Shown here piece by piece: positions 10,317-43,170 of a stretch of DNA of 64,000 nucleotides. Every line of letters begins with the position of its first letter. Position 1 is the stretch's first letter. The notes beneath the pieces were generated by a model. It had not been told where the DNA came from, did not search any database, and saw only the letters and a program-made list of their open reading frames with translations. Source of the DNA: Gnetum montanum (taxonomy: Eukaryota; Plantae; Gnetophyta); the NCBI GenBank assembly GCA_015680685.1, contig MNCI01000651.1:1479832-1543831 (forward strand), given 5' to 3'. Made by a program: the position numbers and the translations under genes.

Positions 10317-10317
10317 A

Positions 10318-13699: not shown

Positions 13700-16600
13700 C
13701 CTGCCAATCTTGCCATGGTAGAACAGAGGCAATCCCTTAGGTTGCATGGTCAAGATCTTGAATATACGGTGCTCAATGATGAGTAGTATAATTTCATTTG
13801 TACAAAACTCCAAGCATGCTTATGCATAGACCATGTAGGTATGGAGGAGAAGTGAGCTTATGAGCTCATACACCAAAACAAACAGGAGTATGTCCCTTCC
13901 TACGTTGACCTCATTCTGCACACCAAGGCCTATCAATGGATGCTTGATCAACTCATTTGACTAAATGAGTGTGAGGTAGGGATAGACTATGAGGAACCTC
14001 TACAAGAGGACCAAGATGAGTTTGAAGCTTATTTCAAGCATGAGAACTCTTTCCACACCTCTTTCTAGTAGACAACCGTTGGTTTTGTCCTCCCACAATC
14101 CTGTCAACCTGTCTTTCCTAAGATAGTTATAATCTTGGTGTCACCTCCTAGGTTAACACCCATGATGAAAAACCACCAAACACACTACACATGCCAAGAT
14201 GTACAACATTTTGTCAGCTTGCCCTTTGTGGTGCTAGCACATCCTGCTCACTCTTCCCTATAGACAGTCATCATTCCCACACAACCCTATGTGCACATCA
14301 TGCACATTTCTCAGTTGTAGATGACTTAGGCATCTTAATTCATGGTTGTCTCATTGGCACCCTCCATGGTAGTCCAACCCACTCATACATGGATGGCCCT
14401 AATTACCATGCCCATAGCACAACTGACACAGCAGGCATCGCACATGATCTCACAACCTATAGCTAGGTCATGGACCATAAAATTGGCATTGTAGGGGTCA
14501 CAACTAGCGTAGCCTCCTGCTACATCCCAAAAATTGGATTAGGTAGTCCAACTAATCCAAACATTAATAGAAGACTTCAAGCAGCTTAAGATGACCTCCT
14601 CTGAAATGGTTCATGTGATGGACTTTTACTAGGATGATCCAATAAGTCTTGTTGTTCCACCACTGAATTTGCTTGCTAGGGCCCCACTACCCTAATTCAC
14701 CAAATATAATAGTGAAGGAGACCCCAATGCTCACCTAGTGACCTTCTAGTCTAAATGCCTAGTACTACAAGCTTGGTTGCATGGCATCATATGCATGTTT
14801 ATCATGTCATTGACTGGTAAGGCACTTGATTAGTACTGTGCACTACCTAGGGCCTCCATTTTCTCTTTAGAGGATTTGCTAAGTCAATTTGTCATGCATT
14901 TCAAGTATAACTTGAAACCATAAATGACCCTGGATCAACTTATGCAAATTAAGCAAGGCCATTTAGAGTTTGTGCAAAAGTGCATACAATGCTAGAGTGC
15001 ATCGCTTAATGAAATCCATGAGTCAATTGCTGAAACACACCTGCTAGCAATCTTTAAGGGTCCGATGAATGACTTTATTAAGTCAAAGCTATATTATCTA
15101 GCCTTACAATCCATGAGCCAAGAATTTTCTCAAACTAAGAGCATTCAGGATGCGGTGAAAGCCAGCAAGGACCCATCCTATGTGGCCTACAAGAACCTCC
15201 ATGCTAAGAAGGACAAGGACAAGGGAAAATAAGCTATAGGTATGGCAACTGTTGCCAACAAGGCCAAGCCAACCATCACACGGCCAATGACCAGACCATC
15301 CAAGGTTGTGGTCAACAACAAGATGATTGGCCCTAGCACTACAGCAAGCAACTAACCTACATCTCGATAGCCGTGTGGCAAGCTCCCCCAAGGTCCAACT
15401 TTGAGTGCAAGGACCGCTCAAATTATACACTATTACCACTCAAACTGTCAAAACTCCTGGACCAATTACTCAAGGCTAGACACATCTAGTACAAGTAGAT
15501 GTTTAAGGACACTTGCAGAAGACATGATAGATACTGTGAGCTCCTAAGAAATTCCTTGGTTGCTACCCCAAATGATCCCCCAATCCCTAATAACTTTAGG
15601 ATGGACCAATTTTTCCACTATCATTAGTTGCCTAGTCACAACACTAACTTTTGTATGGCTTTGTAGGATGACATTTAGCGAATGATAGATAGAGGCAAGT
15701 TGCTCCTTGATGCCACTAACCTTGTTTAGCCTTAGAACTAATCAATGAGGGTCTACAAGAATCCTCTCAACACAAATGATGTAGGGAACATCATCAATGC
15801 TATTAGCTTTGATGACAACCTAGAACCTATGCAGTGGCCATTCATGGTCCATGCATCCTTTGGCAATGTAGGGGTCCCTTGGTCTCCACTAGTTCAAGGT
15901 CCTCCTTTGTTATCAAAGTTTCACCTTGAGCACCTATAGCACCCTTTGTGGTTAGGGTCTTACAACATGTTGCAAAAACAATTTTCTAGTCACCCTTTAT
16001 CGTCAGGGTGCTGCAACATGTAGACTCCGCATCTACCTAAATTCTGGTGGTAGGCAATTTATTAGTCCTTACTCATTCGAGGTTCCATCCTATAGGCAAT
16101 GCTAATAGACCATCCAGGTGGCAACTCGGTAGGCCTAATGAGCACCTTGCTGACAAGATGCTTAGGCAACATCAAGAGCAAAAAGCACGAGGCCCACCCA
16201 AGCCAGTACCCTTGTCCACTATCCCAATGGCCAAATCAACCGAGGAGGCCACCACTAGCAACTAGCAACTTAGCACTGAGGCTCTTAAATAGCCCAAGCA
16301 AGCTAAGCCCAACTCCCCTTCATGAGATATTTGTCTCTTGGACTACATGGAGGAGATTAAGGCCAACAAAATAGTCAATGGTAAGGACTTCATTGATGAA
16401 TTAGCCCAAGTAAAACAAGCCTTAAAATAGAAAAACATAATGCTAAGCTTATATGACCTAATAATGACCTCATCTACCCACTGTGAAGTGCTAGTCCAAA
16501 TGTTGACCTTCATTCCTATTATGGAGGACATCCTAGCTAATGAGCAATCCATCCATGTTGTGATGTTGCCACTTGCCCCTCAGGAATTAAGTTCAACACC

Positions 16601-19600
16601 CCTAGCATTTTGTGATTAGGCAATCAAGGTTGACTCTGAGAAGGGTTAGGTCATCATAGCTCCCATGTTTATTACAATATGTGTTGGGTAGTGTAAGATT
16701 AAGAGAGTGCATGTTGACGATGGGGCAGCAATAAACGTCATCCCATACACTATTGTTGACAAGCCAGGTCTGATCGATTATATCAAATGCACAAAAACAA
16801 CATGTCTAAAGTCCTTCAATGGGTCATTTGTCATTGTTAGGGGAACCATAACAATAGCCTTTGTGGCAAGGGAGCAATTCCCCACCACCGCAGAATTCAT
16901 CATTATTGAGAAGATGCTAGGCTTCAACCTAATCGTAGATAGGCCTTGGCTAGCCTAACTATGGACCATCTCCTCTCCCATTCACCAAGAAATCCATATT
17001 CCATACGAAGGTGGTGAGATGATCATTTATGGTGACAATGCAACCCCTCTAATCATCAACAACATAGACATAGAACAAGGGTCAGAGGTGGAGTTCCCTA
17101 ATGACATGCCTCCTATAAAGGACAATGGCAAAGCATGTGAGGTAGACCTACCTGAGCAAACAAAGAAGGTCAATGACCTCCTAAAGGATGCTTTGTGGAC
17201 AAAATTTCCCTTCAACATAGCTAAAAAAGGTCAAGGCAAGTACCACATAGTACAGTCTAGGCCCTATGCACCTCCTAATCCACATCGAGTTAGGAAACAA
17301 TTGCGCTAAGTGCCTACTAGTCCTTCATCTCTGCATATCTTGCTTGCTTGTATTTTTTATTCATGCATTTATGTTTAGCTTGGTTTTCTAAATTATGTAT
17401 ATTTTTCTTTGTTTTCACATTTGTTTCTTTTGTTTATGCATTTTTTCTTACCTAGTTACACATTTTCTTGTTTATCTTACCCTTTAGCAGTCATTAGTTT
17501 ACACAACATCAAAATACACAAAAAATCATAAAACTAAAATAGCAACACTAGGACCTAAAATGGCTTAAAACTACTTCTACAGCCCACCATGGCCTTAATC
17601 TAGTGACTCATGGCCCAGAATGGCCTTAAACTATCATAATTAATCCCAATGTTACGGCCCACCATGGCCTTAAACTAGCAACTCATGGCCTAGAATGGCC
17701 ATAAACTATTATTCCGTAATCCCTTCATTGTGGCCTAAAATGAACTTAAACTAGCAATCATGTGGTTCAAAATGGCCCTAAACTAGCATCAACCCTCCTA
17801 CTATGGCCTTACACTGGCATGGGGCTCACAATGGCCTAGTTGCATTCATTCGTTGCACTATTATCATAGTAAATACATAGCAAAATAATCACAAATGCTT
17901 ACACATCATCCACCATATATAGCAAACATATCCATTACATTTCACATGAATAATAAGTACATAGTGTGAGCATCAGTAGCATGTAGCAAAAACTACAAAA
18001 AAATGTAAAAGTTCCCAACAATAGGGATACATCAGAACATGCTCAACCAATGGTACTAGGTGGAGGTGGAGGTATTTCTTCTTCCGCTGGACTTCCGGGG
18101 CCTATAGCATCACCTAGTGCCTACCACCACAGAATAATGAAAAAATGAACAATCAATGAGCACATGTACAATATACAAAATAACATGAAAAGGCATAAGA
18201 ACAAACAAAAAACCAACCTAAAAAGGTCCCACATCGATCATGTTTAGAGGTAACCTATCAAGGCCATCCTCCAAGTGTTGAAGGATCTTTGCCTTAGATA
18301 GCTGTGTCTAGTCCTCTTAGAAAAAGTAAATCCCCACAAGGGTCTTACCTTTGTCCATGGTGGTCCATGCAGGCAACTCCATGGAAAAAGGTAGTAGATG
18401 AAGTCTCTCTTGAGGGGGTGACAATCTTCCCCTTAGGAGAGCCACTCACCATGGTATGCTGAGCAAACAACTTGTAGGATTTTCTCCCACATATCACCTC
18501 AAGAAACATCTCAAGGCAGTGGTGCTCAACAGATTCCTCCTTGTACCACCTAAGGTACACATCACGCTTGCATTTTTACTGGTGCTTATGGTTCTTTTGG
18601 GTCTACCCCCACCTATACACCTTAGTGCTGTAGTTTTTCAAGTCCTAGTTCTTCTGGGTAAGCAGATCCATCTGTAGTTGCTGCTTGATAATTTCTTGAG
18701 TAGCCTTATTTTTGCGATTGATAGCTAACCAGTACCTGGCATAATCTATCTTGGATGTTCTCTAGGTGCTATCTCCTTGTGACCTAGCCACCAAAAAATC
18801 ATATCAGGACTAAAGATCTTCAATCTTCGTGTTCTGGTTAGTCACTCTTTCTTGAAGCCCATGCACGCATTTCCACAGGTGCTCATTCAAGCGCTTGTAG
18901 ACCCACAATGCTTTTGCACAGGAAAGTGCACATTTTCTTTTTTTCTTGTACATACAATGAGACACCTAATAAATCTTAGGAGGGAGTTTAGGAAGGGCAT
19001 CTACTTTGGCTTCCCTACTCTAAATGTTTATCTCCATTCCTACTGTAGAGGACATCCTTGTCAATGAGCAATCCATCCATGCTATGATGTTTCCTCCTAC
19101 CCCCTTAGGAATCAAGTTTAACACCCCTAGCATTTCATGATGAGGTAATCAAGGTTAACCCTAAAAAGGGTTAGGTCATCATAGCTCCCATGTTTATTAC
19201 AATACATGTTGGACAATGTAAGATTAAGAGAGTGCATGTCAACGATGAGGCGACAACAAATGTCATCCCATACATTGTCATTGACAAGCTAGGTCTCGTC
19301 AATCAAATCAAACCCACAAAAATGATGTGCCTAAAGTCCTTCAATGGGTCATGGATCATTGTTAGGGGAATCATGACAATAGCCTTCATGGTAGGGGAGC
19401 AATTCCCCATCACTATAAAATTCATTGTTATCAAGGAGAAGCCAAGCTTCAACCTAATACTAGGTAGGCATTGGCTAGCCCAACTATAGGCCATCTCCTC
19501 TTTTATTCATCAAGAAATTCACCTTCCATATGAAGGTCGTGAGGTGATCATTTATGGTGACAATGCAACCCCTTTGACAATCAACAACATAGACTCAGAA

Positions 19601-21976
19601 CAAGGGATAGAGGTGGAGTTCCTTGATGATGTGCCTCCTATAAAGGACAATGGTAAAGCATGTGAGGTAGACCTACCTGAGCAAACAAAGGAGGCTAATG
19701 ACCTCCTAGAGGAAGCTTTGTGGGTCAAATTTCCCTCCAACATAGCTAACAAAGGTCAAGGTGAGTATTGCATAGTACAATCCAAGCACTATGCACCTCC
19801 TAATCCACACAAGGTTAGGAAAGAATTGCACTAAGTGCCTGCCAATCCTTCATATCTACATATCCTGCTTGTCTACATTTTTTATTCATGCATTTTCATT
19901 TAGCTTGGTTGTCTACATTATGTATAGTTTGCTTTGTTTTTTGCATTTATTTCTTTTATTTATGCATTTTTTCTTGCCTGGTTTATGCATTTAATTGTTT
20001 CGCTTACCCTTTAGTAGTCATTAGCTTACCCATGAAAAACATCAAAATACACAAAAAATCATAAAACTATAATAGCAACACAAGGGCCTGAAATGGCCTA
20101 AAACTACTGATATGGCCCGCCATGGCCTTAAAATAGCAACTCATGGCCTGGAATGGCCTTAAACTATCATAGTTAATTCCAATGTTATGGCCCACCATGG
20201 CCTTAAATTAGGAACTCATGGCCTAGAATGGCCTTAAACTACCATTCCTTAAGCCCTTCATCATGGCTGAAAATGGTCTTAAAGTAGAAATCGCATGGCC
20301 CAAAATGATCCTAGACTAGCATCAACCCTCTTGCTATGGCCTTAAACTAGCATGGGGCTCGCAATGGCCTAGTTGCATTCAATCATCGCACTATTAGCAT
20401 AGTAAATACATAGCAAAATAATCACAAAAGTTTACACATCATCCACCATATATAGCAAACGCATCCATTACATTTCATAGGAATAATAAGTACATAGTGT
20501 GAGTATTAGTATCATGTAGCAAAAATTACATAAAAATGCAAAAATGCACAACAGCAGGGCTGCATTAGAACATGCTCAACTAGTGGTACTAAGTGAAGGT
20601 GGAGGTATTTCTTCTTCCACTACACTGTTGGGGCCTACAACATCGCTTGGTGCCTACCACCACAGAACAATGAAAAAATGAACAATCAGTGAGCACATGT
20701 ACAATATACAAAATAACATGAAATGGCATAATAATAAACAAAAAAAACTAACCTGAGAAGGTTCCACATCAACCATGTTTCGAGGTAACCTATCAAGGAC
20801 ATCCTCCAAGCATTGGTGGATCTCTGCCTTAGATAGTTGTGTCCAATCCTCTTGGCCAAAGTCAATCCTTGCAAGGGTCTTACCTTTGTCCATGGTGGTC
20901 CATGTAGGTAGCTCCATGGAAAAGATAGTAGATGAAATCTCTCCTAAGGGGGTGACAATCTCCCTCTCAAAAGAGCCACTCACCATAGTATGCCAAGCAA
21001 ACAACTTGTAGGACTATCTCCCACTTCTTGCCTCATTAAACATCTTAAGGCAGTGGCATTCAACAATTTCCTCCTTGTACCACCTAAGGTACATGTCATG
21101 CTTATGTTTGTACTGGTGCTTGTGGTTCTTTTGGATCTACCCCCACCTATAAACCTTAGTGTTGTAATTTTTCCTATCATAGTTCTTCTAGGTGAGCAAA
21201 TTCATTTGTAGCTGCTGCTCGATAATTTCTCAAGTAGCCTTGTTTTTGCCCCTAATAGCTCACTAGTACCTGACATAATCTATCTCAGACATTCACCAAG
21301 TGCTATCTCCCTATGACCTAGCCACTAGAAAATCATATTAGGATTGAAGATCTTCAATCTTCATGTCCTGGCTAGTCACTCTCTCCTGAAGCTCATAGAG
21401 GTGTTTCCATAGGTGCTCATTAGAGTGACTACAGACCTATAATGCTTTTGAATAGAATAGCATGCATTTTCTTGCTATCTCATACATATAATGAGACACC
21501 TGATCAATCTTAGGAGGGAGTTTAGGAAGGACATCTACTTTGGCTTTCTTGCTCTAAATGTTAACTTTCATTCTGGTTGCAGAGGACATCCTAGCTAATG
21601 AGAAATCCATCCATGTTGTGATGTTGCCTCTTGCCCCTCAGGAATCGAGTTCAACATCCTTGGCATTTTGTAATGAGGAAATCAAGGTTGACCCTAAGAA
21701 GGGTTAGGTCATCATAGCTCCCATGTTTATTACAATACATGTTGGATAGTGTAAGATTAAGAGGGTGCATGTCAACGATGGGATGACAACAAATGTCATC
21801 TCATACACTATCGTTGACAAGCTAGAACTCATTGATCAAATCAAACCCATAAAAATGATGTGCTTGAAGTCCTTTAATGGATCACACATCGTTGTTATGG
21901 GAACCATAACAATAGCCTTCATGGTAGAGGAGTAATTCCCCACCATCGTAGAATTCATCGTAGTAATTCCCCACCA
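13700..21976 (+). mobile_element. Degenerate Ty3/gypsy (Tat/Ogre-like) gag-protease derivative lacking RT/RH/INT, with tandemly repeated protease+3' region unit
   Basis: Gag remnant P*FTKYNSEGDPNAHLVTF (~14690), gag Zn-knuckle-like FFHYH*LPSHNTNFCMAL*DDI*RMIDRGK (~15610-15700), retropepsin KRVHVDDGAAINVIPY...FNLIVDRPWL (16660-16960); no RT motifs seen. Confidence 0.75.
16498..21976 (+). repeat. Tandem ~2.52-2.53 kb repeat, two full copies plus one truncated copy
   Basis: Anchor GAGGACATCCT..AATGAG.AATCCATCCATG at 16524, 19048 and 21582; each copy has the protease, an ATGGCCTTAAACTA repeat cluster and an antisense ORF remnant; third copy stops at ~21976. Confidence 0.9.
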
Positions 21977-25900: not shown

Positions 25901-26887
25901 ATGTTGAACTAGATTTAATAAATCAAGCTATTTACTTCTCATCAGTCATAAGAAGTTAGCGTAGTAGTTATCAATGGAAGGGCTCCATGTTCAAAGAATG
26001 AAGAAAATTTCCCAAAAACCCCAACAGTTGTCTAATAGCCTGTAGTTATATGAAGAGAACGTGAGGCATATGGAGTCTTAAATTTTATAACTGATGTAAC
26101 TACTAGAGGCTACTATCTAAAGCCCAGAGTAGATTTGTTAAAGGTATTAGAAAGTGGAAGAAATTTCTAGAAGAATTAGAAGAAAGCTTGTAAAGGTTGT
26201 TTTATGTAATGGCATGATAAATAGGTTCTATTTATTTCTTATAGCTTTCATCTCTTAACTATTATTTCTAGTTGAATAATTTTTCCTATTTTTTCTAGTT
26301 TAAGTATTTCATAGTTACACATGAATGGATTGCTAGTTTTGGAATAGGTTATTTTCTCTATGAGTGAAGGTTTAGCTTAAGTCTGCTATTCTAGTTGGAT
26401 GGGATAGCTTTAATAAGTGTGAGTCTTTAATCATTTTAACATAAAAATATTGTCATATTTATATAATTCTAAGCTTTATGAATAATTTTTTTCCTTGGTT
26501 TCTTACTCTATTTAACAAAACTTTTGCGATCTAGCTTCCAGAAGTCAGCTAGTAGATAGCTTAGAATTTAAGATTAACATTTTCTATAAAAGTGCCCATT
26601 TGTTGTGTGTAAATTTTAAAGCTAGACTTATAGGAGATCTATTCATTTTCTTTATTTATGTTAAGAGATAGCTAGAAGGAATAGTCATTAACTACATATA
26701 AGACAATAATTCAATAGATAGATCTTTCCATTTTGTAGATAACCTTATATTATTATCCCCACTTAGTCATATTTAGCTCATTTATAGTAATAGAAGCTAT
26801 TTGGAGGCATCCATGATTTGGTGATACCAGAGACCAGCAACCATCTAAAATGAGTAAATACAATAGAAGTTTCCCTTTGTAGCAACA
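22942..26887 (+). mobile_element. Probable long (~3.9 kb) LTR with degenerate internal repeats, related to the nested solo LTR at 31003-34249
   Basis: Inverted termini TGTTGC...GCAACA; 23.1-25.3 kb is built of degenerate GCTCTAC/GGTTCTAC/GTAGAACC/CATGTCAAC units; near its end it shares a ~50-bp block (26798-26849) with 34148-34199. Flanks ATATT/AGAAC do not form a TSD. Confidence 0.5.
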
Positions 26888-29152: not shown

Positions 29153-30223
29153 TGATGAGTGGCGAGGTACCCCTACACTCAACCATACGAATACGAGCAT
29201 GTACGCGCGATCCGGTCGAACTCCGCAGACTAAATGCCTTAACGCCACAAGAAACACTTGGGGTTAATCGTTCGTTGTCTTCCCAGGCTTGCTTGTAGGT
29301 GTCACGGTGTATGGTTAAGCAAGTCTGAGGTATATGATTTTTTTGGTATTTTTCAGTTTATCTCCTAAGCTATGAGGGAAAGGGTTGAGAAACTAACTAA
29401 CTCTAACTAATGTCCTAAGTCTAAATTAACTAGCGTCAGCATCCGTTCCCACTTACCGGACACACCCTGAACTATGCAACTGCAGCTTACCAAACGCTAA
29501 TCGTTACTGGGATCGCCACACGTAACGCAAGTGCTCGAAGTGGTCGTACTGAGGCACCTATTTAGCCTACGTGTGATAAGCAGCCGATTCCTTAGCCAGC
29601 CGTACACACCCGTGGGTGCTCGTAACTAAGTCGTACTTATCACACGATCTAGCCTAGCAATGAGCAGCCGATTCCTCAACTAGCCGTACACATTGGACCC
29701 TGGAGTTACCAAGCGCAGAATCCTGGAATACGCTACTGGGTTACCAAGCAGCCAATGCTCGTAATTGAGTCGTACTCATGCATTGCGTCAAGCAGCCGAT
29801 TCCTTGACTAGCCGTACACGTCCGTAGACGCTCGTAATCAAGTCGTACTTGAACGCACTAGGAAAGCAGTAAATGAAAGCAATAAATGAAACCACGTGCT
29901 GCAAGGTTTATCCAATCAAGTTCGTCTTTATTGCCGTACACAACTTGGGTTCAGGTTACAAGCTGCTCGAATAAAGAGCCGTTCACTCTAGGACTCCTAC
30001 TGCGGGCACATGGGGAAAAATTCTAACTCTGGAGTGATCAATCTGCCAGAGCTTCGCTACACTAGCCAGGATTGGGAAATGAAGGGAGTGCCGCCTCTTA
30101 TTTATAGATATGGCGGCGGGACGCGATATCGCGTACGCGATATCGCAAGAGAAGACGCGATATCGCATACGTGATATCGCATGGGACGCGATATCGCGGC
30201 CTAGTGCAAGTCGCGTCTCATCA
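29153..30223 (-). repeat. 3' LTR of element B (1071 bp)
   Basis: TGATGAG...CTCATCA termini; minus-strand TATAAATA at ~30098-30105; minus-strand AATAAA at 29927-29932. Confidence 0.95.
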
Positions 30224-30236
30224 TACCCCCATGACT
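30224..30236 (-). promoter_or_regulatory. Polypurine tract of element B
   Basis: Minus strand AGTCATGGGGGTA immediately before the 3' LTR; same motif recurs at 30816-30828 and 35761-35775. Confidence 0.75.
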
Positions 30237-31619
30237 GAATGAAAACTCGTCCTCGAGTTCCTTACAATGATATCAGGTAGGTATGGGATTATTAGGGGAA
30301 ATGGAACTAATGGGATGACATGTGAACGGTCTTTATTACAAGACTTGACAAAACTGGTGTTCATGACAACAAGGGTGAACACCTTATTACAATGACATCA
30401 GGCCACATTTGGCAGCTGAGAGAAAAGAGGAGAGAGAATAGAAGAGAAGAAGAGAGAAGAGTCTTGTTGCTGCCAATGCCTAGATTGCGCCTTCCGTTGT
30501 CCATCCGTAAGCGCATTATCCATTCTACTCCTTGCATAGCTGCTTCAGCGCTGCTCCATTCCAAGTGTTTGCTCCAGATCCATTCCGTTGTTGTATGATT
30601 GCCATCTGCACACACAACACAATCATATATTAGCAAGGGTAATTGAATCATTAAGTAAAGAATACCTTGCCTCGGTTTAGGTTCATTGGCTAGGTTGTGG
30701 TATGGCTGATATGGATCTGGGAAAATGTAGATGATGACTACCGAAGGTGTAGGGGTTAAGGAGAAAAAACGAAAAAATCCGGGGCTTAGGAGAAAAATCG
30801 AAAAATCAGGCCCCGTACCCCCATGACTAATCGCGAACCTCCGGTAGCGTTAGAATGGAGAAAGAAAAGGAGTAAGAAAGATAGGTGAAAGGGGACAACT
30901 ATGGCATTGGTGAAATGGATGTCAAGATGGAAATGAACAAAAATAAAATTAATTGCAAAAATATTAAGGAAAAGAAGTTAACTAATGTTCCAAATAGGAA
31001 TGTGTTGGCACATTTTGGCCATTTCATGGAACAGGCTTTATAAGGTTATGGTGATTTTTGAAAAATTTAAAACAGATTGTTGAGATTTTATTTCTTCACC
31101 TTGAAGTCGACCATGTTGATTAAGACAAGCTTTTGCTAATTGGTTCACATCCACAAAGGCATGGTTGAATGTCCCAAAACAAAGATGGTGCGGACATTCT
31201 AGAGTTAAATAAGGTGACAGTTGAAGATGTAAAGAAACGCCCGGGGCAGCTTGCAAAGATTCGGAGCCTACTGTTTCACAATGAATTAAAAGCTAAGCAT
31301 CTGAAAAAAAATAAAATCAAAAACATACCATCGACTTTTCAAAAGGGAATATCGAAAACCAAACCAAGGTAAGGAGACCACGCTGCGCAGTTGCAGCCAC
31401 CGAGAATTGCGAGGTCGATCCAAAGAGATGGACGCGCAGAGCAATGGTGGCGGTAGCAGTGACATCATTAGCAAGAGTAGAAACAGTAACAGCGAGGAAC
31501 GACCTAAAGGCACCCACCATGGAAAATAGCCTTGTCACCGGCGAGGAAGCGCCCGCTCAAACAGTAGATACTATTTCAGCAATGTAAGACCGCTATGAGG
31601 AATTGGACACCCAAGCTCT

Positions 31620-32175
31620 GGTCGACGACGCCACGTACAGACACTGCTGCAATTTTGTGGATTCAAACCTTTGAATGGTGGAATCGCCCAGGGACCTGAC
31701 CTATTTATGCCAAAACCCTCGTATCCGAACTTGCACCTCGACATTCCGATCCTCCTTGTTTCACATGCAAATTTGAGCAGAAATTTAGAAAGCGGATGAA
31801 CAACTGTTGCTGCTGGCCAATCTCTGACAATGTAGGAAGCCATGCCTGGCATGAACAAGGAAATACTGAACAAAAAAAAAGGGTATGATTCCATCTTCTC
31901 AAAGAGGGACGGCAAAGACAGAGGAGACACACAGTTCGATGATTTCGTAATCTACAATCCTGATCAGGCTATTCCCAGGTACGTGGTTCATTACAAGAAT
32001 CTCAAATGTGACCCTACAAACTACATCCCCACAACCATCTCTTCTTCCTCTGACAATCTCATTTGAATCAAGTACGAGAAATCTCCAATGTTCTTAGGGG
32101 ACAGCCCTGAAGAGTACCATTTCCGGTTGGCAGAGTCCCAGTTTTTCAGAATGTCAAGCAGGCAAGAGTACAAGG
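31620..32175 (+). pseudogene. Fragments of a PARP/ADP-ribosyltransferase catalytic-domain gene captured inside the solo LTR
   Basis: QLLL...SLTM*EAMPGMNKEILNKKKGYDSIFSKRDGKDRGDTQFDDFVIYNPDQAIPRYVVHY resembles the PARP C-terminal strands (GYDS...[E]FVIYNxxQxxPxYxVxY); followed by FLGDSPEEYHFRLAESQFFRM. The H-G-T and Y motifs are missing; stops present. Confidence 0.65.
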
Positions 32176-32732
32176 ATCTCCAGCAGTTCTTGAGCTTCTG
32201 CACCGTCATGTGCATCAATGACCATTCTCTGTAAGCGTTCCTGGAACGACGCTAGTGGAGCCTGCTATGCTTAACAAAAAAAATCACCTGTTTTTCCAAA
32301 CACATCATTGGATCTTCCGTGGTCACATCAGGTTTCATACAGAATGGCATCCCCAGTGTCAAAGAGAGAGAGGCATAACGCGGCAAGTTGTAACCCTAGT
32401 TTCAGCGCCTACAACACGTGAGCCCGATAGATATGATTAAATATATAAAGTTTTCTGCAGCTTGGCCAAGGGGAGATAGATGATCAAATTTTATTTATTG
32501 ACCTTTATGTTATTCCTAAATATACATATATAAAGTTATATGTATAGCTATTTTATAAAAAGAGGGATTTATGGACATTTCCAACTATAGCTTTTATTTA
32601 TATAATTGTAACTTTATGTGGAAGTTGTAACTTCCTAGCCTTAATCCATGATGTAGGCCACTTGTCAACTAAATGGGCTACTTCTCAACCACCAAGGACA
32701 CGTGTCAACTGCAACTTGTTTCTCTCCATGGT

Positions 32733-32808
32733 GAACACTTGGCAACTGAGCGAAGACACTTGGCGACTAAGTGAAGACACTTGGCAACTGAATGAAGACA
32801 CTTGGCAA
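32733..32808 (+). repeat. 21-bp tandem repeat (GAAGACACTTGGCAACTGAGT-like, ~3.5 copies) in solo-LTR U3
   Basis: gaacacttggcaactgagc gaagacacttggcgactaagt gaagacacttggcaactgaat gaagacacttggcaatt. Confidence 0.9.
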
Positions 32809-32883
32809 TTACATGGGACACATGTCAGATGCAGCATTTTTATCTCTTTTGTGGTTGAAACCACCCAAAATTGTTGTAACTTA

Positions 32884-32950
32884 CCTAACTTGTTGGGCAA
32901 GTAACCTCCTAACTTGTTGGGCAAGTAATCTCCTAATTGGTTGGCCAGGT
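32884..32950 (+). repeat. 24-bp tandem repeat (CCTAACTTGTTGGGCAAGTAAYCT, ~2.8 copies) upstream of the solo-LTR TATA box
   Basis: cctaacttgttgggcaagtaacct cctaacttgttgggcaagtaatct cctaattggttggccaggt. Confidence 0.85.
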
Positions 32951-35744
32951 TACTTGGGAGAGAAGTTAGGTGAGATATTTTTGAATATGTAACTTCCCTA
33001 CCTACCTTGGAACCCTATAAAAAGGCTTCAAGGGTCAAGGAGGAAATCATCACATATCATCATAACATTGGGTCTCATACATCACACTTGGGATCAAAGA
33101 GCATTTTGTAAAGAAGAAAGTGTGAACGATTGCTTGCAAGATGGCTTGCTAGAATAAAGATTTCAGCCTCTTTGTCATGGTCCTGTGAGTTATGCATTTC
33201 ATTTTTTGTTTTGTTTAAATTGTTTAGCTAGTGGTTTAGATAGTATCATCCTTGGCAAGTAATTTTGGGATTTTTAGATTGCTCTTATTGTTCTTGTTGC
33301 CCGATAGAAATTTCTATTAAAATTTTGCCATAGAAGCGCTTGTGTTTAAAAGCCTTAAGAGCATTTTAGTAGTAAATTTCATTATTGTGCAACGTGTGGG
33401 AACTGCTATTGGGATTGTTGTAAGAGAGCCTCTGTTTGTAGTCACGCCGTTGAACAATTCAGTAGTCGAGAGGGTTCAGAAAATCTTTGGTATTTTGATG
33501 GGACCAGAATAGCTTCTTTTTATCTTTAAAGTGAATTCTCGTGGTATTTCAATCAGAAATTGTCAAGTCTTTTAAAGGTTCTGTTTGAATGCAATCGTTG
33601 ACATCTATTATCTAGTCAAAATGGAGTCTCGTACGTGGTAGTTTACGCAGCAATTTTTGGTAGCATAATAGGATTGTCTTGAAGATATTGCTTGTTTGAG
33701 CCTTGGAAGTTTGAACAATTCGTAGATATTGAATTTGGGATAGCTTTATTGCGAAGTGTTTACTCGTGTCATTTTACCTTGTTTAAATATTTGAGGTCTA
33801 CACAAATCTGCTTTCTTTTCTTTTCTGCTTATTTCCATCGAATCTTGCTCTATTTCTAGTTTTCTTGTGGAACTATCTCTTTCTCTGGGGAAAATTAGGA
33901 GTAGATTGCGGAGTTGTGCTCAAATGTTTTTGCAAAATTTTATTTGTTACAAGTAGGTATTATAAGGACCGCGTAGACTAGGCAAGTGAACAAAATAGAA
34001 AATTTTCAAGAGCTCACAGTACTTGGCAAAGTTGGCTGAATCTCTTTAAAGTAAGTCATTTGTAGTTCACACACAATGCAATTGTTACATTTTACACAAC
34101 CACACGCCGCAACAGCACATACACATACTCACATTAACTACTGAGTTTATTTGGAGGTATATGGGCCTTGGTGTTGCCAGAGACCAGCAGGCATCTAAAT
34201 CCTGTTCGAGGACACTTGTTGGCGGTCGCGTCCCAAACGGTCCCCAACAGAATGTCAGTGGGTCCTCCCCAAAGCAGGCTCATGCCCTTAATGCCCTGAC
34301 AATCCCACATTCAAAGAGTCCATAGGCTCTGGGAATGTCCTTTGGAACAAGAGTTAAAGTCTTAACCGTAAGAATTTACCAAAAAGAAAACAATGCATCA
34401 ACCAAAATATACACTAATGATACAACCGGAATGAGGTGAACAATGGGGAGAAGGATGGAAAGAAGAGAAGTGGAATGGAATCCCAAGAACAAGGTGGTGT
34501 ACAACCCCTTATGTGGTTTATGATTAATGTGGCTTGGCGAATCTCATTCCAACTCTGGCTCAAACCAACCACATCCAGTGACTTCGCATCAATGCATTTG
34601 GTTAGACCATCCACTTGGAGAATAAGGATGCATCTTCAAAGAGCCACCACCATTCCGACGAAACAACGGAGAGAATGGGAAGCGAGAAGGGCCTTAGTTA
34701 GAGGGAACGCTTTGGTTCCATAACCAATGCTTGTAGCCCAAATTTTATTTCGTCTAAGGGGTATGCTTTGAATCCTCACTTTGGTTTTTTTTGTTTTTTT
34801 TTTTTTTGTGTTTTGTGTTTTTATGCGTGGGGACCACACCATGCAAAGACTTCTTTATTTTTATTGTCTCAGCTTCCGAAGAATGGATAGCATCGGAACA
34901 GTAAGAAAACTCAAGAAGAAAACAACCAAGCACCCAAGTGAATAACCAACACAAGAGCACCAAGTTCCCTTGAAGTCACACCCTTTGCAATCCTTGAGTC
35001 CTTCCTTAGTTTGAGAAATGCCNNNNNNNNNNNNNNNNNNNNNNNNNNNNNNNNNNNNNNNNNNNNNNNNNNNNNNNNNNNNNNNNNNNNNNNNNNNNNN
35101 NNNNNNNNNNNNNNNNNNNNNNNNNNNNNNNNNNNNNNNNNNNNNNNNNNNNNNNNNNNNNNNNNNNNNNNNNNNNNNNNNNNNNNNNNNNNNNNNNNNN
35201 NNNNNNNNNNNNNNNNNNNNNNNNNNNNNNNNNNNNNNNNNNNNNNNNNNNNNNNNNNNNNNNNNNNNNNNNNNNNNNNNNNNNNNNNNNNNNNNNNNNN
35301 NNNNNNNNNNNNNNNNNNNNNNNNNNNNNNNNNNNNNNNNNNNNNNNNNNNNNNNNNNNNNNNNNNNNNNNNNNNNNNNNNNNNNNNNNNNNNNNNNNNN
35401 NNNNNNNNNNNNNNNNNNNNNNNNNNNNNNNNNNNNNNNNNNNNNNNNNNNNNNNNNNNNNNNNNNNNNNNNNNNNNNNNNNNNNNNNNNNNNNNNNNNN
35501 NNNNNNNNNNNNNNNNNNNNNNNNNNNNNNNNNNNNNNNNNNNNNNNNNNNNNNNNNNNNNNNNNNNNNNNNNNNNNNNNNNNNNNNNNNNNNNNNNNNN
35601 NNNNNNNNNNNNNNNNNNNNNNNNNNNNNNNNNNNNNNNNNNNNNNNNNNNNNNNNNNNNNNNNNNNNNNNNNNNNNNNNNNNNNNNNNNNNNNNNNNNN
35701 NNNNNNNNNNNNNNNNNNNAAAAAGAACTGAGGGCCCCATATGG

Positions 35745-38429
35745 TTAGCATAGGTGGCCATCTCCCCCATGACTGAGTTGTAAGGGAGAGATCCGAAATA
35801 GTGAGCGTGGTTGACCGCTAGTAGAAGCGTGACTGGCACTAGCTGGTGCAGATTCACGGAAAAGTTTTGTTTGTTGTACATTAACCAACAACCTTTTATC
35901 CATGCTATCAGGCTTATATATCATCAGGGCGCCGAAGGGAAAGGTAGTATGAATAATGTAAGGTCCTTCCCACAAGGTCTGAAACTTCATACGTTGGGGT
36001 ACATGTGTGGGGTTCCAGTAAAGGACCTTATCTCCTGGTTTATATCTAAGCCTCCGGATCCTTAGGTCATGCCGTTGTTTACTATGTGCTTTGTGCAACT
36101 CATTTAACGACAGGGCAACCAATCGATTCTCATCTAACACATTCAAAGTTGCCAGTCGTTGTTTGTGTGCTAGGTCAAGATCCAGGTGAAATTCATAAGC
36201 CATGGATAGTGTATGAAGCTCACTTTGTATAGGCAGTTTTGGAAGTTTCCCATACACTAGCTCATAGGGAGAATATCCTGTAGGGAGTTTCCAAGTGGAA
36301 CGATACGCCCAAAGAGCGTCATTCAATTTCGTGCTCCAGTCTCGCCTAAATTTGCTAATCGTTCGTGTTAATATTCTGGTAATCTCCCTATTAGTAACTT
36401 CAGCTTGGCCATTAGCTTGAGGATGGTAAGGTGTGGTCAGTTTATGCTCAACCCCTAAGCGTTGCATCAACTTTCTAAAGGTTGCACCTGTAAAATGCGT
36501 TCCATTTTTGGAAATAAGTGCACGTGGTACACCAAATCTATTAACGATTTGTTGCTGTACAAATCGGGCAGCTGTAGATGATGTGCAATCTATTACAATA
36601 GCTGCTTCAGCCCATTTGGTTAAGTAATCCACAGCAACGATTATATATGCTTTTCCGTTGGACATTGGTGTAATCGGTCCCATGAAATCAATCCCCCAGA
36701 TGTCAAAGGGTTCCAAAGGTTGAATCCATTGTTGTGGACCCTCCATCTTAGCAGTCATTCCCCCATCACGTTGGCAGTGCTCACAGGATTGAGCAAAATG
36801 ATGGGCATCCCGAAACAGCGTTGGCCAATAATATCCCGCCAGCAGGATTTTAGTGGCTGTTCGTCTCCCAGCATAATGACCCCCACAAGGGCCCTCATGA
36901 GCATCCTGGAGGACTTTTAATTGATCTTGATCGGGAACACACCATCGAACTAGGCCATCAGAGCAGACTTGATAGAGTTGTCCCCTAATTTCCATGAAGT
37001 ATTTGAGGTTGTGAAGAAACCGTTGTTTCTTCCTAAAGTCTAACTTTTGCGGCATTTGTTGGGAAGTAAGATAGGTGAGAATGATGTTATACCAATTTAT
37101 GTCTGTGGGTTGATTATTTATCACACCAGCAAAGAGGGTTTCATCAGGAAAATGGTTAGATACCATGTATTCGTCCTCTTTGTTGTCCCATGGCAACCGA
37201 GATAGGTGATCGACGATGACGTTCTCGGTGCCCTTGCGGTCTACAATAGTTAAATCAAACTCTTGTAGAATCACTAGCCAACGTATGATACGTGGGCTAA
37301 CCGTTGGCTTATTCATAACAAACCTAATTGCACTATGATCTATGTGGATATATACCTTGTAACCTAATACATAGTGTCTAAACTTATCCAGTGCAAACAC
37401 AACAGCCATTAATTCTTTTTCTGTAGTTGTGTAGTTAAGTTGTGCACCGGTAATGCTTTTACTGGCACAATGGATGTAATAAGTTCGTTTTTGTTCATCT
37501 AATTGTGTTAGTACAGCTCCTAAAGCATAATTGGATGCATCGATCATGATATGGAATGGTCTGGACCAGTCAAGTGCTTGTAGAATGGGAGTTTCCACAA
37601 ACCTTTGTTTGAGAGCCTGGAATGCTTGTTCACACTCCCTGGTCCATTCAAATGGTGCATCTTTCTTTGTTAATTCTACCAACGGTTTGGAAACTTTTGA
37701 AAAGTTCACAATAAACCTCCTGTAGTAGCCAGTGTGTCCAAGGAATGACCTCACGTCTTTAACGGTTTCCGGTTGTCGGGTAATTCCTTGGATGACTTTA
37801 TTTTTTTCTAGGTCAACTTCGATCCCTGATTGTGAAATTTTGTACCCCAACACGATGCCCTCTTGAACCATCAAATGGCTCTTTTGCCAGTTGAGCTTAA
37901 GGTTGGTTTCAACACATCGTTTCAATACTTGCTCTAACCGGTCGAGGGCTTGATCAAAGCTCGTTCCATAGGTGGAGAAGTCGTCCATGAAGACTTCTAC
38001 TCCATTGCCTATTTGTTGTTGAAAAATACTTAGAACTAAGCGTTGAAACGTGGCAGGTGCATTACACAAGCCAAAAGGCATTTGTTTATATGTGAACGTT
38101 CCCCAAGGACTGGTGAACGTTGTTTTGGCTTGGTCTTCTGGTGCAATGCGTATTTGGTTGTACCCGCTATATCCATCCAGAAAACTGTAATAGCGATGCC
38201 CGGCTATAGTGTCTAAGACTTGGTCCACAAATGGCAGTGGGAAGTGGTCTTTGAAGGTTGCCATATTTAACAGCCTAAAATCTATACATACCCTCCATTT
38301 ACCTCCCTTTTTCGGTACGATGACAAGAGGGCTAACCCATTCGCTGTCAGCGATAGGGTAAATGAACCTGGCCTTGAGAAGTTGTTCTAGTTCTTCCTTA
38401 ACAATTTTTTCAGTTTCAGGTTCAATCAC
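35745..38429 (-). CDS. pol: Pol: reverse transcriptase - RNase H - integrase (894 aa open frame; part of interrupted gag-pol)
   Basis: IYPIADSEWVSPLVIVPKK, LDGYSGYNQI, MPFGLCNAPATFQR, EVFMDDF, DASNYALGAVL, NYTTTEKE, HEGPCGGH...CEHC, WGIDFMGP, YHPQANGQAE, WEGPY; no chromodomain and no extra RNase H. Confidence 0.95.
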   Translation of the reverse strand: MIEPETEKIVKEELEQLLKARFIYPIADSEWVSPLVIVPKKGGKWRVCIDFRLLNMATFKDHFPLPFVDQVLDTIAGHRYYSFLDGYSGYNQIRIAPEDQAKTTFTSPWGTFTYKQMPFGLCNAPATFQRLVLSIFQQQIGNGVEVFMDDFSTYGTSFDQALDRLEQVLKRCVETNLKLNWQKSHLMVQEGIVLGYKISQSGIEVDLEKNKVIQGITRQPETVKDVRSFLGHTGYYRRFIVNFSKVSKPLVELTKKDAPFEWTRECEQAFQALKQRFVETPILQALDWSRPFHIMIDASNYALGAVLTQLDEQKRTYYIHCASKSITGAQLNYTTTEKELMAVVFALDKFRHYVLGYKVYIHIDHSAIRFVMNKPTVSPRIIRWLVILQEFDLTIVDRKGTENVIVDHLSRLPWDNKEDEYMVSNHFPDETLFAGVINNQPTDINWYNIILTYLTSQQMPQKLDFRKKQRFLHNLKYFMEIRGQLYQVCSDGLVRWCVPDQDQLKVLQDAHEGPCGGHYAGRRTATKILLAGYYWPTLFRDAHHFAQSCEHCQRDGGMTAKMEGPQQWIQPLEPFDIWGIDFMGPITPMSNGKAYIIVAVDYLTKWAEAAIVIDCTSSTAARFVQQQIVNRFGVPRALISKNGTHFTGATFRKLMQRLGVEHKLTTPYHPQANGQAEVTNREITRILTRTISKFRRDWSTKLNDALWAYRSTWKLPTGYSPYELVYGKLPKLPIQSELHTLSMAYEFHLDLDLAHKQRLATLNVLDENRLVALSLNELHKAHSKQRHDLRIRRLRYKPGDKVLYWNPTHVPQRMKFQTLWEGPYIIHTTFPFGALMIYKPDSMDKRLLVNVQQTKLFRESAPASASHASTSGQPRSLFRISPLQLSHGGDGHLC

Positions 38430-41400
38430 CTCTGGGGTTGTTTGTGAGGTTTCATAGAAGGATCTGTATAAATCCTATGTTGGCATATCCGAGGATCTAT
38501 CCCAGTTAGTTCAGGATACGACCAAGCAAAGGCGGCTGACCACTTGTTTATCACCCTTAGCAAACTTTCTTTTTGCGTGGACACAAGCTTTGCGTTGATG
38601 ATCACCGATTTTTCATTTTTGAGCGTCACGTATTCCAAACCGGTGGGTAACGGTTTCAACTCTAGGGGTTCTTGTTTAAACTCCTCAAGAATCTCCAACT
38701 TCCCCCAATTAATATTTTCGAAGTTAAGGGCTGGAAGTTGGCAGCGAACTTGCTCCAATACGTCTGCGCTTTCAAGGTAAGCACTAGTTATTCCCTCAGT
38801 TAGTTCCATGCAAGTAGTTGGTTTGCTATCTTTATCAGCCATCAGCCACTGAATGTCTTCTCGTTGTGTGGCTATTGTATATAGGCACTTTTATATATTA
38901 ATGTCCTACGCACACCGATTGCATGCAGGCAATGTTAAACTTCGCATTACCCATGATTTCTGCACGCAATGACACCCTGTGTCACTATATGCGATGCATG
39001 GAACTCTTTTCCTCTCAATTTTCCCAAATGTATTTGTCTTGGATATTTCTAGGGAAAGGTTACGAATTTCTAAGCGAGCGTCGATTGTATTTGGCCATGC
39101 CCTTCCCATGATAATTGGGAAATCCCCTTTGTCATTATTTATTTCGATCACTAGGAAATCGGCTGGATATGACCACCCACCGACAGTTGTGACGATGTCT
39201 TCAACCTGTCCCAGAGGAACAGTGATGGACTGGTCAGCCAGTTCAAGGCGGACGTTGCTCTTCTTGAGTGGAGGTAGGTTCTAGGTCTTATACAATTTTT
39301 GTGAGATTAAGTTAACCCCGGAACATAAATCGAGAAGAGCCTTATGGGGTTCATTCCCAGCGACTTGAAGGTAAACTAAGGGGACTCCTGGATCTGATAA
39401 CTTCTTTGGAAGGTGGCCAACTTTGATCCAGTCAGTTACTGTATGCGTTAACATAACTGTGTGCATTGGACGTGATTTCGCTACTGGAAGATTTCCCGAA
39501 ACCGCGTTAGGTGTGGGATTGTTAGGAGGCTCAACTGCTTGTGAGGGCGAAGGCTTAATTGGATTGTTGGTCCTAAGGAAGGATCTTTTTGGTGAACGAT
39601 TGGTAGAACCAACTGAGGTTGAAGGTTTAGGGGCCCTCGCAGTGTTGGGTTGTCGCAGCTAAGTGGGATTTACTCTAGGCCTTGTTGGGGTAGTGGATGG
39701 TGCAACCGTAGGTGCAAGAGATGCGGATGAACTTGGAGGACATCATGGGTATGGGACGTTCCCCGAAGGAGGGGGAGTCCGAAAATACTCCTGAACTTGG
39801 TAGTAACATGGAGGTTTTATGTGACCTATAAAGCTACCTGGAGGAACTGGCTGTTGCACATAATAACCGTAAGGATCAGGCTGCCGGTAAGGGTATTGCT
39901 ATTTTGGCAATGGCATCCCCCATGACTGTGGATATTGCCATTGCTGATGTTGTCTGATGGGCTGAGGTGGAGTTCCACTTGGGTAATACGTTAGTGGTTG
40001 GTGGAACTGCCTTGGGTTACCTTGTGGATAAGGTAACCTTCGGGGTGTTTGCCGTTGATTAAGTCTTGGATTTAATGCATACACCCCAGTCTCCTGCAGA
40101 TGTGAGATAATTGGACAACATCCTTTAGGATGCACATAGTAGCAGACCTCACATCCACTATCATTGTCTGAATTAGAATTTTCAGCCACATCGGAGTTAG
40201 TGATTTTTCCCTTACCCTTGTTATGTGCAGGGCTTAAATCTCTCCTCCTTTTCTTTCCTTTGTCACTACTTTGCTCAACCTTAGACTCTTCTACAATTTT
40301 CAAGACTATTTCTATTTGTGAGTCTAAGGAATCCCACATTTGGTCTACCTTAGCCGATACCTCCGTTGTTAACTTCTGGATCGGCACGGTTTTCCTGTTC
40401 ACCAACTCTTCGAGTGGTGACTCATCCTCCTCATCACAGAATTTCACTCCCTTCTTGCGAAGGGAGGGATCGCAGTTGTATTCTTCCGCACTTTCTCTCT
40501 TCCGTAGCTCACCCTCTTCTTGCGCTACTTGTTCCAACAAGCTTTCAACTTCATGGGCTCTTAGTTGGGAGAGTCTCCCTTAGGCGTAAGTCCCAAGAGT
40601 TCTTCTCATTTCATTCCTTAGCCCATCCACGATGTGGCGAAGTTGATCCCGCTTAGCGTACCCATGGCCCGGGCAACAATGTAACAATGTGTAATAGCGG
40701 GCCATGGCAGCATCCAAGGGTTCATGAGTACCTTGTTTCCAGCCTTGGATCTGCTTCCGCAAGTTGGACACTCTAGAGTACGTTTGATATTTGTTGTTGA
40801 ACAATTCAAGCATCGTACTCCACCTCCTGATGGTTTCCGGTTCTAAGGACCGGTACTAGCTCTCTGCTTCTTTGGTGAGTGTCCTTGGGAACAACTTGAG
40901 CTTCTGCCACTCACTATCAATGTTCTGCAAGGCACAAGCATCGTGGAATGCCTGTAGATGATTTTGCGGATCAGCATTGTATCCCCCTTCAAATCGTGGG
41001 ATATTATTTAGGTCCAAACGCTTGATCCGACTATCCTTTAAATACCTTGTGGGAATCCTAACTGCCTCTGTTATGTCAAGCATACTTCGGGTTGCGAGCA
41101 GGGGTTTGTCATGGTCATCTCTTTCATGACGTCTATGATGTCTACGTGGTGGTTCCCTACTTTCCCTATGTCCTTGCCCTTGTCCTAACTCCTCTCGACG
41201 TTCTTGTCGAGGTATTTCATCTTCCCTTTTACTTTTACTCTCTCCGTTATGCTCACGATGGTTGCGCCCAGATGTGGAAGGAGAGTGTGAATGGTGAGAT
41301 GAAGGAGAAGAGGAAGGGGATCCATCATCATGGCGATGTTTCTTACCTTCTCTTCAGCTGCTTCGGCCCCGATCGTTGTGATGACCCAATTGTCTGTCAT

Positions 41401-41965
41401 TAGTGTGAGTAGTTGTTCCTGCCGTGAACAGTTGGTGCTCATGGGGATCAGGGCCTGTAGCATGTACAGTTGATCGAAGGCCCTGATGCTTTACCTCTTC
41501 ACCAGAGTGAGGAGGAGGAACATCATTTTCTAAGAAACCCATTGTGAGGGGTTCCTCATCTCCTATTTCACTAATGACATGGGGAACCTTGCCCTTCAAT
41601 AATGAATGTTGGCTCTCCTGCCTTGCATCCCGAATACGTTGGGCATTTGTGGGATGATAATCCCTTATGTCATAATCATCCAAAACGTATTCCGCAATCA
41701 GTTCTTGCATGCCAGTCTGTGCTAAGGCACGGAAAAGCATGTTAGGGGCAAATCTATCTGGGGGTAACACGATGTTACCTTGCAGATCTCTCCATCGCAG
41801 TTGTTCATCTTGATGGAAAATAAAAGTAAAGTCAGGGACATACTCATCAGGATGAGTATATGTGACCTTGGATTGTTTAGGACCTGGCTGATCTGGGTTA
41901 TGCGTCTGATGCTAACCTTCTCCTGTGTTGCCCTTAAGTGAGTTAATTTCATGAGAAGAACCCAT
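38426..41965 (-). pseudogene. gag: Gag and aspartic protease of element B, interrupted by stops/frameshifts
   Basis: ATG at 41965 (MGSSHEIN...); capsid-like PRFEGGYNADPQNHLQAFHDAC...KLKLFPRTL, LLHCCPGHGY, CEVCYYVHPKGCCP; protease LSDPGVP...ALLDLCSGVNLI and PIIMGRAW. Confidence 0.9.
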
Positions 41966-42092
41966 TCTAATGGTGTGCTAACTTTCACCGTTATTTATGT
42001 TCTTGATTAACTGATTAACCCTAAGGTTCGTTTAAAGCTCACAACGATGTGAGTGATATCCCTTATGTTCAATTGGCGTGAAAAACACTTAG

Positions 42093-42110
42093 TCCCCAGC
42101 AACGGCACCA
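42093..42110 (-). promoter_or_regulatory. Primer-binding site complementary to tRNA-Asp
   Basis: Minus strand TGGTGCCGTTGCTGGGGA, two C>T changes from TGGCGCCGTTGCCGGGGA, the PBS typical of Athila-lineage elements. Confidence 0.88.
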
Positions 42111-42111
42111 A

Positions 42112-43170
42112 TGATGAGTGGCGAGGTACCCCTACACTCAACCATACGAATACGAGCGTGTACGCGTGATCCGGTCGAACTCCGCAGACTAAATGCCTTA
42201 ACACCACAAGAAACACTTGGGGTTAATTGTTCGTTGTCTTCCCAGGCTTGCTTGTAGGTGTCATGGTGTATGGTTAAGCAAGTCTGAGGTATATGATTTT
42301 TTTGGTATTTTTCAGTTTATCTCCTAAGCTATGAGGGAAAGGGTTGAGAAACTAACTAACTCTAACTAATTTCCTAAGTCTAAATTAACTAGCGTCAGCA
42401 TCCGTTCCCACTTACCGGACACACCCTGAACTATGCAACTGTGGCTACCAAATGCTAATCGTTACTGGGATCACCACACGTAACGCAAGTGCTCAAAGCG
42501 GTCGTACTAAGGCACCTATTTAGCCTAAGTGTGATAAGCAGCCGATTCCTTGGCTAGCTGTACACATCCGTGGATGCTCGTAGCCAAGTCGTACTTATCA
42601 CACGTTCTAGCCTAGCGATGAGCAGCCGATTCCTTAACTAGCCGTACACATTGGACTACCACTGGGATTACCAAGCGCAGATCCTGGAATACGCTACTGG
42701 GTTACCAAGCAGCCAATGCTCGTAGTTAAGTCGTACTCACGCGTTGCGACGAGCAGCCGATTCCTTGATTAGCCGTACACATCCGTAGATGCTCGTAATC
42801 AAGTCGTACTCGTGCGCACTAGGAAAGCAATAAATAACAATGAAATAAAACCATGTACTGCAAGGTTTATCCAATCAAGTTCTTCTTTATTACCGTACAC
42901 AACTTGTGTTCAGGTTACAAAGTTGCTCGAATAAAGAGTCGTTCACTCTAGGACTCCTACTGCGGGCACATGGGAAAAATTCTAACTCTGGAGTGATCAA
43001 TCTGCCAGAGCTTCACTACTTCTAGCCAGGATTGGGAAATGAGGGGAGTGCCGCCTCTTATTTATAGATATGGCGGCGGACCACGATATCGCGTACGCAA
43101 TATCGCGTACGCGATATTGCAGGGGATGCGATATCGCGGCGGCCGCGATATCGCATGTCGCGTCTCATTA
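42112..43170 (-). repeat. 5' LTR of element B (1059 bp)
   Basis: TGATGAG...CTCATTA (one terminal change); aligned to 29153-30223. Confidence 0.95.

Follow-up and report, generated by a model that had tools for sequence, protein, structure and literature searches.

We report a solo long terminal repeat (LTR) of Gnetum montanum (Gnetophyta) in which a patchwork of host-gene pieces occupies the middle of the predicted U3 region. The LTR lies in a 64,000-nucleotide stretch of contig MNCI01000651.1 (assembly GCA_015680685.1, positions 1,479,832 to 1,543,831), here called the window, and is inserted into a Gypsy element. At least five pieces make up the block, and two donors were named: UTP14 and a gene for a ZNFX1-like helicase with tandem PARP domains. 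We consider it probable that these non-coding pieces were stitched together by template switching of reverse transcriptase, and that they travel as a passenger of a minor sublineage of the LTR family. A previous, sequence-only reading of the window had described PARP fragments in the LTR and missed the multi-gene mosaic, including UTP14.

Gene pieces within a solo LTR

The LTR unit is 3247 bp long, its termini form a 6-bp inverted repeat (TGTTGG/CCAACA), and the target-site duplication (TSD) GAATG is present on both sides (random 5-mer identity, p ~0.001). Contigs joining 30997 directly to 34250 were found in the deep DNA runs X3, X6 and X8 (n = 9, 9 and 6, respectively), and one contig of the low-coverage DNA run X13 carried such an empty-site joint at the equivalent offset. 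In all four DNA runs the joints omit exactly 3252 bases (3247 + 5). The contigs are other copies of the host Gypsy element without the solo LTR, and they fix the ends of the unit exactly where the sequence-only reading had placed them. The TSD adjoins the LTR end directly; a second LTR, a primer-binding site (PBS) and an internal domain are not attached, and a second copy is absent from the 64-kb window. The 3' half of the LTR is conserved and has high contig depth, and the gene-piece block lies upstream of a TATA-like box, as had been noted, and of an AATAAA signal (Table 1). From the positions of these two signals, the block is predicted to sit in U3. At 26798-26849, 52 bases resemble the U5 end of this LTR (79% alike).

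The PARP-like part of the block (piece D) was identified through its homologues. Six of the 50 candidates from a homologue search passed, five of them at E 1e-37 to 6e-30 (Cryptomeria twice, Taxus, Ginkgo and one without a species name) and the other a moss protein. The Pfam profile PF00644 scored 14.6 bits on the piece (E 0.023), under its gathering cutoff of 26.7 bits, so the identification relies on the homologue matches; the PARP assignment of the sequence-only reading thus falls short of the profile and is upheld by the homologues. The piece is 56-61% identical to conifer and Ginkgo ZNFX1-like helicases with two PARP domains. The window aligns colinearly to residues 1566-1691 of one of these, P0003, at 56% identity, and the aligned part runs from the end of PARP domain 1 through the linker into the first helix of domain 2. 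Both peptides quoted earlier were recovered in frame +3, and the second does match the start of the second PARP domain. In a 25-row tree the window fell among gymnosperm rows on a long branch (0.67) and in no starred set, and a PDB search with the piece gave two matches, both at E > 0.3. One metagenome locus among 126 candidate stretches (L001) was set aside as a chance match; it lies in what may be a fungal gene, and it had neither a BLASTN match to the window nor a match to the donors.

The PARP match is confined to 31806/31815-32175, about 120 codons. Against the donor family, the upstream flank scored 37.0 (shuffles 29.6 +/- 4.5, maximum 40.7) and the downstream flank 25.7 (shuffles 24.6 +/- 3.2), and the family was matched in one of 36 block-frames across the region (E 8e-48). 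The view that the whole of ~31370-32440 is a single, internally deleted PARP gene was therefore rejected, the flanks being no better than shuffles. The stop codons reported in the PARP frame of this copy are present (31833 and 32064), whereas the PARP part is cut at both ends rather than deleted internally. In P0003 numbering, the catalytic residues His1510 and Tyr1541 of domain 1 precede the piece and His1725 of domain 2 follows it, and Asp occupies the catalytic Glu position (31941-31943), as the sequence-only reading had seen. With an incomplete His-Tyr-Glu triad, two stops and an end before the second His, piece D cannot be an enzyme.

The remainder of the block has other sources. Piece A matched the UTP14 profile PF04615 (E 1e-8, 34.8 bits against a cutoff of 30.2) and a yeast Utp14 chain (E 0.046). 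The capture of host-gene sequence inside the LTR is thus upheld, whereas its derivation from a single PARP source is not, the block starting further 5' with the UTP14 fragment. In the poly-A run X24, of which 26% was read, 317 reads were placed, mostly 90-95% alike to the window, and 242 of them fitted only partly. The reads cover four separate blocks, with loose ends at 31173, 31349, 31492, 31691, 31815 and 32175 (24-41 reads each), those at the first two positions marking both edges of piece A. At 31815 and 32175 the loose ends encode the upstream residues and the next exon of the PARP donor, and the X24 reads over piece D are therefore donor mRNA. Three poly-A reads omit 155 bases with GT..AG ends at 31975-32131, likely a minor splice form of this donor.

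No Pfam match and no match to the PARP donor family was obtained for piece B. Piece B2 is entered at 31490 from unlike sequence by one DNA contig in each of two runs. Two frames fit piece C equally well, and frame +1 of 31315-31824, which may be the wrong frame, gave no match against 1.84 billion representatives. For piece E there was no Pfam match, and an Atlas search of its 72-aa frame gave no match (best score 0.76). X24 reads are absent from 32208 onward, and none runs from piece D into E. A further run, X21, gave 26 reads, none of them on the PARP piece and too few to assign. A run search listed no RNA dataset containing the sequence, which speaks for neither side. The longest stop-free run in any frame of the mosaic is 126 codons.

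The PARP donor family comprises SF1 helicases of the ZNFX1 type with two C-terminal PARP domains (P0003, P0005, P0006, P0027-P0033, P0036, P0042, P0088). Members occur in conifers, there with several paralogues, and in Ginkgo, ferns, a moss, cnidarians, a chytrid and a cryptophyte. No named flowering plant occurs among the best 120 of its 139 matches, many of which carry no species name. The His-Tyr-Glu triad of PARP domain 1 is kept in the gymnosperm members and lost in the moss one. A literature search on ZNFX1-like helicases with tandem PARP domains gave two matches, by title only, both on Aplysia.

Copies, origin and fate of the mosaic

Genomic open reading frames (ORFs) of the donor family (P0007, P0008, P0020, P0025) start at an intron end near window position 31829; behind the residue that matches 32174 they enter an intron, the exon ending at 32175. 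The match between window and donor residues continues across the 31829 site without an intron, and the switch to piece E falls exactly at the donor exon end. The crossed intron site and the end at an exon boundary are moderate evidence that points to splicing in an RNA stage. Of the donor gene and intron comparison proposed earlier, the donor family was found, with one intron site crossed and one exon end hit, the introns coming from other sources only. Four X5 DNA contigs continue past 32175 (consensus agreement 0.69) with sequence partly like the next exon, and longer processed copies may exist beside the intron-bearing donor gene.

Runs with four species labels (A, B, C and D) gave coverage of the block. 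At three positions, RNA reads and DNA depth differ in the state that they carry. A 3-base difference from the window at 31872 is present in 28 of 35 RNA reads and in none of the DNA depth units (0 of 345 and 0 of 101). The A-run difference at 31304, which shifts the UTP14 frame, was counted in 40 of 47 RNA reads against 9 of 1745 and 108 of 536 DNA depth units, and Glu at the catalytic site in 44 of 44 RNA reads against 31 of 109 and 9 of 172 DNA depth units. These shared derived states show that sister copies, rather than the donor genes, supply the DNA depth of the block. Contigs 6-13% different from the window span the junctions A/B, B/B2 and C/D. Since these junctions and the derived changes, including the UTP14 frameshift, are common to the copies, the mosaic has multiplied after capture.

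Summed contig depth in three deep runs was 0.2-1.8 million over 32796-34236, ~10,000-21,000 at 31093-31223 and 32534-32664, and ~250-1900 over 31224-32402, where single listed contigs had a depth of 5-35; the gene-piece block is ~1000-fold lower in depth than the R/U5 part of the LTR. The figures allow no finer reading than tens of copies, in an LTR family that is vastly larger. The mosaic is not fixed in that family, and most related LTR sequence is without the block. Its presence elsewhere in the genome, raised by the sequence-only reading, is accordingly of an intermediate kind: it is no one-off, and it is not a family-wide cargo. In the low-coverage run X13, 7 of 30 bins over the block were empty, which is not informative at that coverage.

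A family that carries a working ADP-ribosyltransferase cargo, toxin-like or for counter-defence, with the present copy decayed, had been proposed earlier and is now very improbable. Neither PARP stop is found in the majority of the other copies (X5 depth units without it, 147 of 163 and 492 of 639), and some DNA contigs leave at 31806-31811 or extend past 32175, so that longer versions may exist. However, two of the three catalytic positions of domain 1 and the His of domain 2 fall outside the piece, Asp stands at the Glu site in most copies, the C/D junction that cuts the domain is common to other copies, the PARP piece is one of at least five, and the block is as rare as described above relative to R/U5. 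The toxin reading of the PARP piece does not hold.

Relatives of the LTR match 31003-31179 and then carry other sequence, and other relatives enter at 32453-32459 from other sequence. Four joints were listed, none of them an empty-site joint within 31179-32453, and the block is without flanking repeats. The unlike sequence in relatives between 31180 and 32452, together with the lack of an empty joint, indicates that the middle of U3 was replaced and not merely interrupted, which is the pattern described for template switching in the available text of PMC5131818. Stepwise gain or loss is suggested by the lower depth of piece D relative to A-C (X5: ~340-920 against 1000-2300) and by some contigs that part from the window at 31806-31811.

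These observations also bear on the alternative that a separate multi-copy mosaic element, of the Helitron, Pack or another chimeric type, jumped into U3 of this LTR or a close ancestor, which we regard as unlikely. Several donors per block are described as typical of Helitrons and Pack elements (PMC2774510, as far as available), a CTAG with a small hairpin occurs at 32252, and linkage of the other copies to LTR ends is not among the contigs listed. Against such an insertion, the block edges bear neither direct nor inverted repeats, no empty-site joint was listed, the depth takes no upward step after 32255, relatives part from the window at 31179 into other sequence, and the intron site is crossed. 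A Helitron (A|TC start, hairpin and CTRR|T end, empty site) was rejected, the best hairpin being -3.3 kcal and 3 nt from CTAG, with depth and contig ends that misfit. A Pack-MULE or GingerRoot element was likewise rejected; the 6-bp inverted repeat and 5-bp TSD compare with the required long terminal inverted repeats (TIRs) and a TSD of at least 6 bp, GingerRoot TIRs being given as 100-150 bp in the part of PMC6839031 available.

In the template-switching origin that we favour, reverse transcriptase would have switched repeatedly onto co-packaged host mRNAs while copying U3 of the element RNA, and pieces would have been gained stepwise. Short overlaps at 31153-31179, 31490-31492 and 31815, seen by eye, are candidate microhomologies at such switch points. 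In LTR retrotransposition, U3 of the 3' LTR serves as template for both LTRs, and the cargo would thereby have been doubled in each round. A minor sublineage of the LTR family would then have multiplied the mosaic as a passenger. The present copy inserted into the Gypsy element, and it probably lost its interior by recombination between its LTRs and decayed by deamination of methylated cytosine. Of 36 listed differences between reads and window, C-to-T or G-to-A changes of the window account for 27 (12 CG, 7 CHG and 8 CHH), as expected for methylated repeat DNA. Ten of the listed sites fall in the PARP frame (three synonymous, five replacement, two stop), a count that is not a test of dN/dS. 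The mosaic itself would have no selected function.

Several points weigh against this reconstruction. The crossed intron site has only ~8 codons upstream of it, the donor introns are known from sources other than this species, and intron loss is also expected after capture at the DNA level followed by splicing; capture of mRNA is not proven. A clean passenger history fits poorly with two PARP-frame stops that are mostly private to this copy. Contig depth is no copy number, and among the pieces listed (16 of 1228 and 32 of ~253,600) none spans 31173-31180, 32175 or 32453. No full-length element with the block in both of its LTRs was seen, and the LTR setting of the other mosaic copies is inferred. 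No donor was named for pieces B, B2, C and E, and C may be antisense. The X24 depth is similar over the four blocks (~25-50), which is also compatible with one longer chimeric transcript.

The mosaic could alternatively have been kept by selection as RNA, with U3 transcripts giving rise to small RNAs or a decoy that damps the donors, among them a possible RNA-defence gene of the ZNFX1-PARP type; there is little chance of this in our judgement. ZNFX1 works in antiviral and small-RNA pathways of animals, which lends the idea some appeal, as do the many copies in four species labels. Donors of captured fragments are described as more methylated in Platycladus (PMC13477047, in the text available). 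Set against it, the PARP piece has the lowest depth in the block, other donors such as UTP14 look random, the copies and the donor reads now mostly agree at 90-95%, and no X24 read runs from D into E. Production of siRNAs against the donor gene, which the sequence-only reading had named, may be possible.

By a wider, improbable extension, the middle of U3 would be a swappable 'Pack-LTR' cassette, in which subfamilies carry different mosaics of host mRNAs and the cargo makes small RNAs against donors, including a ZNFX1-PARP defence gene of non-flowering plants. Each transposition would then double the mosaics, and solo LTRs would retain them.

Because cargo in U3 goes into both LTRs and persists when the interior is deleted, it would spread look-alikes of host exons faster than internal capture does, and surveys restricted to internal regions would miss it. 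The mosaic offers a dated multi-copy case for testing epigenetic conflict in gymnosperms. The more interesting lead may be the donor gene itself, which encodes the ZNFX1-like helicase with its two PARP domains.

Host element and neighbouring repeats

The host Gypsy element is full length, with PBS-like and polypurine tract-like sites and a stop-free reverse transcriptase, RNase H and integrase (RT-RH-INT) frame of 909 aa, and judged by contig depth it is present in very high copy. Its LTRs differ by a Kimura two-parameter distance (K2P) of 0.086, which with conifer rates dates the insertion to about 20-60 million years. The solo LTR is younger than its host. The coordinates of the features are collected in Table 1.

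Table 1. Features of the solo LTR, its mosaic block and the host element (window positions)
Feature	Position	Strand	Details
Host full-length Gypsy element	29153..43170	-	LTRs ~29153-30223 and 42112-43170; TSD GAAAG; RT-RH-INT 35748-38474
5' TSD, GAATG	30998..31002		Empty-site contig joints skip 3252 bases
Solo LTR, TGTTGG..CCAACA	31003..34249	+	Within 3' internal region of the minus-strand Gypsy element
U3 5' start	31003..31179	+	Common to relatives that diverge after 31179; two contig records match, then leave
Piece A, UTP14 coding fragment	31173..31349	+	PF04615; one-base frameshift in an A run near 31304
Piece B, expressed host transcript fragment	31380..31492		5' edge approximate; 38 poly-A reads with loose end behind 31492
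Piece B2, different genomic source	31490..31660		3' edge approximate; mostly without poly-A reads
Piece C, expressed host transcript fragment	31691..31814		Likeness maybe back to ~31660; 41 poly-A reads with loose end before 31691
Piece D, end of PARP domain 1, linker, start of PARP domain 2	31815..32175	+	From ZNFX1-like helicase/tandem-PARP gene, by homologues
Piece E	32176..32452		Joined at 3' boundary of donor exon; DNA depth continues across 32175
Short tandem repeats, U3 enhancer region	32659..32977	+	
TATA-like box, TATAAA	33016..33021	+	AATAAA downstream at 33153
3' TSD, GAATG	34250..34254		

Elsewhere in the window, 1273-11184 holds a second Gypsy-like element, with an interior 68% like the first and LTRs 84% alike. 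At 16491-21961 a 2.5-kb unit is present head to tail in about 2.2 copies, which are 84% alike and possibly tandem LTRs. A Copia-type pol fragment (protease, GAG-pre-integrase, integrase) lies at 59199-60302 on the plus strand. Assembly gaps (N runs) occur at 35023-35719 and 8194-8208 and account for the low GC and spurious long ORFs there.

Comparison with known systems

Capture of gene fragments is common in gymnosperms, where ~400,000 fragments captured by transposable elements are given per genome and 13.68% of the host elements, Gypsy and Copia included, carry at least two (PMC13477047); a location inside LTRs is not stated in the text of that survey as available. Retro-capture from several genes is known from maize Bs1, soybean TRIMs (miniature terminal-repeat retrotransposons) and animal LTR retrocopies, with the cargo between the LTRs (PMC13317346, PMC4717578 and PMC5131818, each in part). 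The extra ORFs of plant elements are likewise described as internal in the part of PMC7264820 available, and by the criteria of a maize survey, in its accessible text, no element combined fragments of several genes (PMC2774510). Partial coverage of the literature, judged mostly by titles, gave none that deals with mosaics of protein genes within plant LTRs, and cargo from several donors within U3 was not met in the literature searched.

Set beside its donors, piece D resembles the ZNFX1-like helicases with two PARP domains (P0003, P0005, P0006) over its own length, whereas it represents only ~120 of 1800 residues, broken and without a catalytic triad. Like maize Bs1, the mosaic combines partial, probably exonic pieces of several unlinked host genes, its copies share their switch points, and it multiplied after capture (PMC13317346 and PMC5131818, in part). 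The cargo of Bs1, as described there, lies between the LTRs and forms a translated chimeric gene, whereas here it lies inside a single TSD-flanked LTR, persists in a solo LTR and has no long frame. Soybean TRIMs such as GmaRetroS15 also carry pieces of up to three host genes, there exon-only, with a 5-bp TSD and in several copies, their pieces being placed in the internal region between two short LTRs in the available text (PMC4717578), unlike the present ones. In the partial sources at hand, the Cassandra TRIM (5S rRNA-like) and BARE-2 (Wis-2 sequence) share with the Gnetum element foreign sequence that lies in the LTR and is duplicated with it; theirs is an RNA gene or the sequence of another element and is family-wide, whereas here scraps of protein genes are carried by a minor sublineage.

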